64,000 nt of DNA from Escherichia coli. Its GTDB lineage: Bacteria; Pseudomonadota; Gammaproteobacteria; Enterobacterales; Enterobacteriaceae. Where the stretch lies: assembly GCF_003334255.1 (NCBI RefSeq), contig NZ_QOWU01000012.1; one strand, 5' to 3'. The notes under the pieces were generated by a model that had not been told where the DNA came from, searched no databases, and saw nothing but the letters and a program-made list of their open reading frames with translations. Every line of letters begins with the position of its first letter. Positions within the stretch are counted from its first letter, which is position 1. Both the position numbers and the translations under genes were made by a program. Below, piece by piece: positions 63,260 through 64,000 of this stretch.

Positions 63260-63541
63260 TATATTTTTCTCAAGACCCTTCAGGGGCATATAAGAGGCAA
63301 ATTTTAGTAAAGTACTTACCCAATGTTAAGCGAAAAATATGTAGTTTCTCTTAGTTGAGCATCTTTAAATCGCTGCGTAAGTATCTTAACATTGTTGTTA
63401 ACGTCTATAGTTATTTCACTGATACATGAGTTTAAATTAAAATGTGTTAAAATATTTATTTGGTTTAAGATGATTTTTCTTTATTATGTAGCGGGATTTA
63501 TATCCCATTGTAAAGAAAAGTTGACATTTATTGGGGGTAAC

Positions 63542-63928
63542 GTGAGCGATATTCTGTCATGGATTGAGGTTGGTAAACTTTCAGCTGAAAGGGATGATAA
63601 TCTTGTACATTACTTCTTTGATAATGGGGTGCTTCAAAGCGTAATTAATACTCCATCATCTTTTTTAATTCTTGGAAGAAAAGGTGCTGGTAAAACAGCT
63701 CTTTTTCGTTATCTAACAAATAATCCCAGACAATATCTAAAAGAGAATGAAGTATTAGTATCTTTATCTTTTGAAGACTACAATTGGCGAGTTCATTCTC
63801 TGCTCAGTAATGAATATGCTGCTGAGTCATTAGCATATAAACAGTCTTGGAAATTTGTAATTTTAGTTGAAGTTATTAAGGCTTACTTAAAATATTTAGA
63901 AGAAAAAAGATTAACAATACCTAGGTAA
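63542..63928 (+). CDS. Unrecognised P-loop NTPase, N-terminal ~127 codons only; frame cut by IS1
   Basis: ORF track 63392..63928; preferred start GTG ~63542 after GGGGG RBS; Walker A LILGRKGAGKTAL; AT-rich coding; last codons and stop lie in the IS1 terminal repeat. Confidence 0.55.
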   Translation: MSDILSWIEVGKLSAERDDNLVHYFFDNGVLQSVINTPSSFLILGRKGAGKTALFRYLTNNPRQYLKENEVLVSLSFEDYNWRVHSLLSNEYAAESLAYKQSWKFVILVEVIKAYLKYLEEKRLTIPR

Positions 63929-64000
63929 TGACTCCAACTTATTGATAGTGTTTTATGTTCAGATAATGCCCGATGACTTTGTCATGCAGCTCCACCGATT
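63924..64000 (-). mobile_element. IS1 insertion sequence, terminal 77 bp (inverted-repeat end) continuing beyond the window
   Basis: ggtaatgactccaacttattgatagtgttttatgttcagataatgcccgatgactttgtcatgcagctccaccgatt recognised as the IS1 end and the 3' end of its insB frame in reverse orientation. Confidence 0.85.

Follow-up and report, generated by a model that had tools for sequence, protein, structure and literature searches.

The 64,000-nt stretch of Escherichia coli contig NZ_QOWU01000012.1 analyzed here (hereafter the window) ends, just beyond the core gene ttcA, in a short AT-rich segment. It is close to certain that this segment is the left end of a decayed Rac-type (RecET lambdoid) prophage lying in the 5′ end of ttcA, and that the gene that begins within it, encoding a 514-amino acid (aa) AAA+/P-loop ATPase of the Sll1717 family, is cargo that formerly lay between the left attachment (att) site, attL, and the integrase. 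In the present genome the ATPase gene is a pseudogene, inactivated by the insertion sequence IS1. The intact protein, as judged from its relatives, is probably a single-gene anti-phage factor that is carried as a moron by temperate phages and protects against superinfection.

The island in the 5′ end of ttcA

The whole arrangement can be read in strain WP7-S17-ESBL-04 (locus L001), where ttcA on the minus strand is followed by a 282-bp AT-rich spacer, the ATPase gene on the plus strand, a tyrosine integrase remnant on the minus strand (a C-terminal fragment with a frameshift), and uspF. Two copies of a 51-nt imperfect direct repeat (L001 14949-14999 and 17632-17682; 86% identity, spacing 2,683 nt) bracket the 2.68-kb island, whose only contents are the ATPase gene and the Rac-type integrase fragment. 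The right copy, outside the window, is of the ttcC type: it is 93% identical to the K-12 ttcA 5′ end and encodes the ttcC-type ancestral N-terminus. The left copy lies within ttcA itself (Table 1), and comparison of TtcA N-termini shows that the first ttcA codons come from the prophage side of the att site. The Rac prophage likewise has attL within ttcA and a ttcC′ pseudogene at its far end, and replaces the TtcA N-terminus on integration (PMC4632033). The integrase fragment, also outside the window, is 85.6% identical to K-12 intR, lies in the same orientation, and has an internal stop in addition to the frameshift. With Rac, CP-933R, and Sp10 the island has in common the ttcA 5′ integration site with its imperfect attL/attR repeats and ttcC-type copy, an intR-family integrase at the ttcA-proximal end (here the C-terminal fragment, approximately 86-88% nucleotide-identical to intR and in the same orientation), and a TtcA N-terminus swapped for phage-borne codons.

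The E. coli island lacks the phage backbone genes (xis, recET, repressor, and structural genes), and uspF comes directly next. On the IMG/VR contig L017, conversely, an 86%-identical ATPase is followed by a complete integrase (411 aa, 74% nucleotide-identical to intR), RecT, and a 1,216-aa RecE-like exonuclease. Because the backbone is missing in E. coli and present in L017, the island is a remnant and not a prophage; the att repeat, the integrase fragment, and the L017 arrangement together identify it as the remnant of a Rac-type prophage in which the cargo at the integrase end has survived. It differs from Rac in retaining only 2.7 kb, and from the Rac of K-12 in the contents of that end. 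In K-12, only 51 bp and no gene separate ttcA from intR, a junction shared by 2,908 of the 5,426 complete E. coli genomes searched, whereas here a 1.9-kb ATPase-bearing cargo takes the place of the 74 bp that run from the ttcA start to the final integrase codons. In other E. coli, such as strain N2512, the site is empty and ttcA leads directly to uspF.

The composition of the segment and its distribution both mark it as acquired. In 200-bp windows, the guanine-plus-cytosine (GC) fraction drops from approximately 0.50 over ttcA to 0.27-0.36 between 63200 and 64000, and the interval 63263-63923 (GC 0.309; z = -4.5 relative to all 600-bp windows) has the lowest value in the entire 64 kb; the ATPase gene has a GC of 0.35 vs. 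0.51 for the window. A megablast search found the segment in 6 of the 5,426 genomes. Strains G1/2, G6/7, and G8, all from a single study of faeces from healthy humans in Germany, match the query through the IS1 junction, and IS1 itself was read in G1/2; WP7-S17-ESBL-04, MB06232, and PEC408 match only to the insertion point, and an uninterrupted 514-aa open reading frame (ORF) was read in WP7-S17-ESBL-04. In Salmonella enterica, a 96%-identical ATPase gene occupies the same place and is colinear with that of E. coli into the first ~200 bp of the integrase fragment, while a second att copy was not detectable at the Salmonella locus. Between the two species the synonymous divergence (dS) of the ATPase gene is 0.375, with a ratio of nonsynonymous to synonymous substitutions (dN/dS) of 0.04, compared with a dS of 2.7 for ttcA; the ATPase gene must therefore have spread long after the two species diverged, and strong purifying selection has acted on it. 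The Salmonella locus (L004 10268-13690) also holds, between the ATPase/integrase fragment and uspF, genes for a 1,140-aa DUF4765 (PF15962) protein, which has no match in PADLOC, and for a small SMR/EamA-type transporter.

A preliminary description of the window, made from its letters alone, had rightly remarked on the sharp AT-rich turn past ttcA and had taken the DNA beyond it to be non-core and horizontally acquired at the Rac attachment site, as the att repeat and the six genomes bear out. It had set the ttcA start near 63289, 5′ of the annotated start at 63259, and, seeing no integrase, had proposed an accessory or defence island. The accessory P-loop NTPase of a defence-like type stands; the integrase-less island does not, given the Rac-type fragment just past the gene and the 2.7-kb prophage remnant to which both belong. 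Two other outcomes had been envisaged. A housekeeping protein present in most E. coli was not what was found, while an ordinary Rac-type prophage with a phage-encoded ATPase was found in part, the prophage being a decayed remnant and the ATPase family being phage-borne.

The island has a further consequence for its host gene. Since the prophage provides the first ttcA codons and all of the DNA upstream of them, the ttcA promoter must be inside the AT-rich island. The best ttcA-facing match, TTAACA-17-TAAAAT (10/12 positions), lies ~40 bp upstream of the ttcA start; in the promoter and terminator scans overall, sites were no more numerous than in shuffled sequence. On the other side of ttcA, the dbpA-ttcA intergenic region (62196-62323) contains a GC-rich palindrome, gccggatgcgacgctggccgcgtcttatccggcc, which resembles a repetitive extragenic palindromic element as judged by eye only.

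The ATPase gene and its disruption by IS1

The part of the gene that falls within the window encodes the N-terminal motif AERDD..YFFDNG and a Walker A motif, GRKGAGKT (residues 45-52), and closes at a TAA codon (63926-63928) created by the left end of IS1, which starts at 63924. IS1 cut the gene after codon 127, leaving a 128-aa product in which the final residue is changed from K to R. The remainder can be followed in strain G1/2 (locus L002), which is 99.994% identical to the window over 48262-64000, IS1 junction included. In that strain a complete 768-bp IS1A, with an annotated transposase and programmed frameshift, is followed by the rest of the ATPase gene. The 9-bp sequence CAATACCTA stands at L002 15654-15662 and again at 16431-16439, directly after the 768-bp IS1, and is present in a single copy in the uninterrupted allele of L001. 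The G1/2 locus accordingly displays what is expected of IS1, namely a length of 768 bp, terminal inverted repeats, insA/insB with a programmed frameshift, and a 9-bp target duplication. The intact ortholog of strain WP7-S17-ESBL-04 (L001:15281-16825; WP_197971544.1) is 514 aa long and identical over the 127 shared codons. Because IS1 splits the reading frame and G1/2 carries the remainder of the gene beyond the element, the ATPase gene in the window's genome is a pseudogene. In the RefSeq annotation of G1/2, the 5′ part appears as WP_197278070.1 (128 aa) while the 3′ part (L002 16547-17602) has its own entry, a 351-aa 'P-loop ATPase, Sll1717 family' protein; as neither half is flagged as a pseudogene, a single disrupted gene enters the annotation as two.

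The N-terminal peptide quoted in the preliminary description is the exact translation from the GTG at 63542, P-loop included. The same text had the reading frame run off the end of the window, which it does not, and had noticed IS1 without seeing that it lies inside the ATPase gene. It had also been unable to place the protein in any core E. coli family and had supposed that system partners might lie beyond IS1; the family is given below, and what lies beyond IS1 in G1/2 is the gene remainder, the integrase fragment, and uspF.

Table 1. Features at the right-hand edge of the window.
Feature	Position	Strand	Basis or remark
ttcA (core gene, tRNA 2-thiocytidine synthetase)	62324..63259	-	RefSeq annotation of identical sequence in L001 and L002; 311 aa
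Left copy of 51-nt imperfect direct repeat, attL-type, within ttcA 5′ end	63210..63260		Repeat search in L001
Island intergenic DNA, AT-rich, GC 0.29, promoter-like sites in both directions	63261..63541		
Promoter-like site toward ttcA	63329-63301	minus	Consensus scan on L001, pattern match only
Promoter-like site toward ATPase	63415-63443	plus	Consensus scan on L001, pattern match only
5′ fragment of 514-aa Sll1717-family AAA+/P-loop ATPase gene	63542..63928	+	GTG start 63542; 128 codons + stop
IS1 target-site duplication, left copy, 9 bp, CAATACCTA	63915..63923		Second copy read in L002
IS1A-family element, first 77 bp; terminal inverted repeat GGTAATGACTCCAAC...	63924..64000	-	768 bp in full (G1/2)

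Family, predicted fold, and neighbourhoods of the ATPase

The intact ortholog matches the curated NCBIfam family NF047389 ('P-loop ATPase, Sll1717 family') at 263.6 bits over profile positions 2-454 of 454, and even the 128-aa fragment alone reaches 75.4 bits, against a curated cutoff of 75 bits. It also matches PHROG 13260 (function unassigned) over its whole length. Within these two families it resembles other members in its full-length match, its size (~470-515 aa), its stand-alone architecture, and its motifs; it differs in belonging to a tight clade that keeps 55-60% identity across phyla. Full-length homologs at that level occur in Planctomycetota, Chlorobi, Bacteroidota, Verrucomicrobiota, several Proteobacteria (including Vibrio and Pseudomonas), and others, a distribution that is patchy and cross-phylum. 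Across 49 homologs, G45-R-K-G-A-G-K-T52, D231, and D234-E235 are invariant; Walker A alone falls within the window, the remaining nucleotide-site motifs being encoded beyond IS1. Searched with a profile, 1.84 billion cluster representatives yielded 3,146 clusters at E <= 1e-3, mostly stand-alone proteins of 470-510 aa, and all ten of the distant members sampled belonged to NF047389. Rare family members are fusions with a GT4-conflict domain (E = 1e-127), the adaptor domain EAD7 (E = 9e-19), or a cold-shock DNA-binding domain, which hint at varied outputs across the wider Sll1717 family. One of the twelve long relatives aligned (P0179) is a 964-aa protein with a C-terminal GT4-conflict glycosyltransferase.

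The protein is predicted to fold into an AAA+ module that resembles those of ORC/Cdc6 or STAND proteins and includes a lid and winged helix. The AlphaFold2 model (predicted local distance difference test 83.9, predicted template modelling score 0.82) begins with a conserved acidic segment at the N-terminus (residues 1-40) and continues with an AAA+ core in which a ~135-residue helical insertion separates strands 2 and 3, a lid of helices bearing an invariant MMRPRD motif, and a C-terminal winged-helix-like domain, so that the AAA+ base, lid, and C-terminal winged helix of the ORC/Cdc6 fold are all predicted to be present. Its nearest solved folds are those of Cdc6/Orc1, TnsC, MuB, and DnaA-type AAA+ proteins. 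A Cdc6-like DNA clamp was considered and is disfavoured by the charge of the domains, with an acidic winged helix and an overall isoelectric point of 5.4. Pfam gave weak ORC-CDC6-like and AAA_16 matches and nothing else, and a profile search of the PDB by sequence returned nothing useful. All AFDB50 neighbours are uncharacterised and carry labels such as 'ATPase', 'FunZ protein', or 'Orc1-like AAA', the first two of which also stand on many UniProt entries of the family; 'FunZ' stands for 'function unknown Z' (PMC11481780), so that this label holds no functional information. A literature search on 'Sll1717' found no paper. Searches of Pfam, PADLOC, and NCBIfam revealed no effector or repeat-sensor domain, and the protein contains no nuclease, protease, TIR, SIR2, or membrane domain. 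Immune AAA+ proteins of the ORC/Cdc6 and STAND types, such as BrxC (BREX), Avs3/Avs5, RdrA (RADAR), and CED-4/NLR, together with TnsC and MuB, served for comparison. Unlike the immune proteins of this set, the ATPase has neither an N-terminal effector nor a C-terminal TPR, LRR, or WD40 sensor, has no partner of the RdrB or BREX type, and is similar in sequence only at the P-loop motifs. The STAND/Avs architecture consists of effector, NTPase, and repeat sensor, whereas the model holds AAA+, lid, and winged helix only.

The neighbourhoods of the homologs vary. In lambdoid prophages of Erwinia and of a metagenome the homolog lies near the integrase. On IMG/VR contig 2643221611_000002 (L021, 7965-9563), a 52%-identical homolog lies within the head-gene module, flanked by a Mu-F-like minor head protein on one side and a head maturation protease and major head protein on the other, an unusual position for a moron. 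In Vibrio cholerae (L009 and L010, 7001-8536), a 55%-identical homolog directly follows a filamentous prophage (Rep_trans ... Zot) and precedes matP, and may belong to the filamentous element as cargo or have inserted at the same site. In Ketobacter the homolog sits on a mobile island that also bears genes for Macro, RelA/SpoT, and HEPN_AbiU2 proteins, together with an IS element. Relatives are found on 9 IMG/VR contigs in all. An all-vs.-all comparison of ORFs found no neighbour family common to more than two of 16 loci, and all shared pairs but one were syntenic; with no recurrent neighbour, the ATPase is a stand-alone gene. The sole non-syntenic shared neighbour is a small ORF (~120-140 aa) at L009 8668-9090 and L025 6211-6591. 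The ATPase of L025, an IMG/VR contig, is 26% identical, and the sharing of this ORF with Vibrio cholerae may be due to chance.

Candidate functions of the intact ATPase

The link to defence comes from DS-41 ('AAA2', WP_033812887.1, 502 aa; NF053860), a single-gene anti-phage system validated by the DefensePredictor study, which reduced plating by 5.3 log10 for phage T4, 5 log10 for Bas1, 4.7 log10 for Candy, 3.6 log10 for Bas63, 2.7 log10 for Bas3, 2.5 log10 for Bas69, and 2.3 log10 for Bas19 (PMC13092281). The NF047389 model gives DS-41 a score of 97.6 bits, and DS-41 homologs bear the Sll1717 family annotation. As DS-41 and the ATPase both exceed the NF047389 cutoff, they are divergent clades of one curated family. 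The second NCBIfam match of the ATPase is in fact NF053860 ('DS41_1 anti-phage protein'; 58.6 bits, E = 5.4e-16, positions 10-426 of 448). Both are single genes for proteins of ~500 aa, and they have in common an N-terminal (S/T)AE(R/N)(D/E) motif, Walker A, a D-[RK]-x-D-E Walker B, an Arg/Trp pair, and a P-R-(D/E) sensor-2 motif; hhalign pairs Walker B, R290, W299, and the PR(D/E) sensor-2 motif between the two clades. They differ in the C-terminal 70-100 residues, which do not align, as well as in clade, and anti-phage activity has been demonstrated for DS-41 only.

If the intact protein is an anti-phage factor, as seems probable, the ATPase would act as a nucleotide-dependent switch, in which ATP binding and hydrolysis drive a conformational or oligomeric change on infection, and the assembled form would block phage development. 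The predicted switch residues are the Walker A K51, the Walker B D231 with D234-E235, R290, and the sensor-2 pair P354-R355. As an effector domain is absent, the block would be achieved by binding or sequestering a phage or host component directly, or by recruiting a host factor. A bolder version holds that the ~511-aa clade is a distinct immune protein, widespread and phage-borne, that halts infection with no enzymatic effector domain, the AAA+ switch itself being the weapon, which might, for instance, assemble on a component of phage replication or packaging or sequester it; we regard this as doubtful, though conceivable.

Several observations weigh against an anti-phage role. The killing or blocking step is pure conjecture, no effector domain being visible. 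The ATPase is not a member of NF053860, falling far below its equivalog cutoff (58.6 vs. 370 bits; genuine DS-41 scores 414 bits), BLASTP against DS-41 gives motif-level matches only (Walker A and the sensor-2 region), and hhalign aligns residues 226-441 alone (E = 5e-5) with a probability of just 67%. None of 50,697 GenBank phage records encodes a relative by tblastn, some homologs, such as the one in Flavobacterium, stand alone among housekeeping genes and are uninformative for defence, and the knockout by IS1 in three related strains indicates that the gene is dispensable. The isoelectric point of 5.4, and of 5.9 for the winged-helix region, which is acidic and not basic, speaks against the anti-phage role in a simple Cdc6-like DNA-clamp form. 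In PADLOC v2, the full protein gave only a weak partial match to the candidate system PDC-M28C, judged to be generic P-loop similarity. The fragment likewise gave weak matches to the DpdH N-terminus in PADLOC, judged to be generic P-loop/N-terminal similarity, and the DefensePredictor supplements list neither the ATPase nor its family name.

The same mobile, patchy, low-GC pattern would fit other kinds of conflict gene, such as a toxin-like or addiction module, a factor directed against plasmids or conjugation, or a weapon in competition between prophages, and both the Ketobacter island and the family fusions to 'conflict system' domains are compatible with such roles. No conserved antitoxin-like partner was found in the 16 loci, however, and the only family member tested, DS-41, protects against lytic phages; we consider this explanation unlikely. 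It is quite unlikely that the ATPase serves the prophage life cycle, as a replication initiator, a DNA-target or loading ATPase of the Cdc6/DnaA/MuB/TnsC kind, or a regulator of lysogeny. Its nearest solved folds and its carriage by temperate phages agree with such a role, but the position of the gene differs among phages (att-int end, head module, beside a filamentous phage), it never adjoins a transposase, replication origin module, or helicase in the 16 loci, its homologs also occur outside prophages, and the winged-helix region is acidic. Moreover, the K-12 Rac and the 2,908 genomes with a ttcA-intR junction manage without it.

Many defence ATPases are known to act with nuclease or other partners, and the window stops inside IS1, so the ATPase might be one part of a multi-gene system with partners past the element. 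This is highly improbable, as strains with the same locus have only the gene remainder, the integrase fragment, and uspF after IS1, and the 16 loci show no recurrent neighbour apart from syntenic pairs and a single small ORF that two unrelated loci share. That the fragment belongs to a core or housekeeping gene of E. coli, or is an AT-rich reading frame that arose by chance, has a negligible probability given its presence in 6 of 5,426 genomes, a dN/dS of 0.04 in a full-length family, and the strong match to a curated family.

As a dead gene in a prophage remnant, the ATPase gene matters little to the present strain. The locus does show that in prophages of the Rac family the stretch from attL to the integrase can accommodate a cargo gene that varies, and that such a gene can persist after the remainder of the prophage has gone. 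The NCBIfam family, the PHROG, and a distant validated defence protein were already known; what is new is this ATPase as a further family member. The family to which the cargo belongs is very large (>3,000 clusters at 50% identity), and only the distant DS-41 has been shown to protect against phages. The intact 514-aa allele, probably present in three complete E. coli genomes, would act as a single gene and is hence an easy candidate for plaque assays. If an effector-less AAA+ switch does turn out to be the weapon, it would represent a mechanism undescribed for single-gene defence systems.

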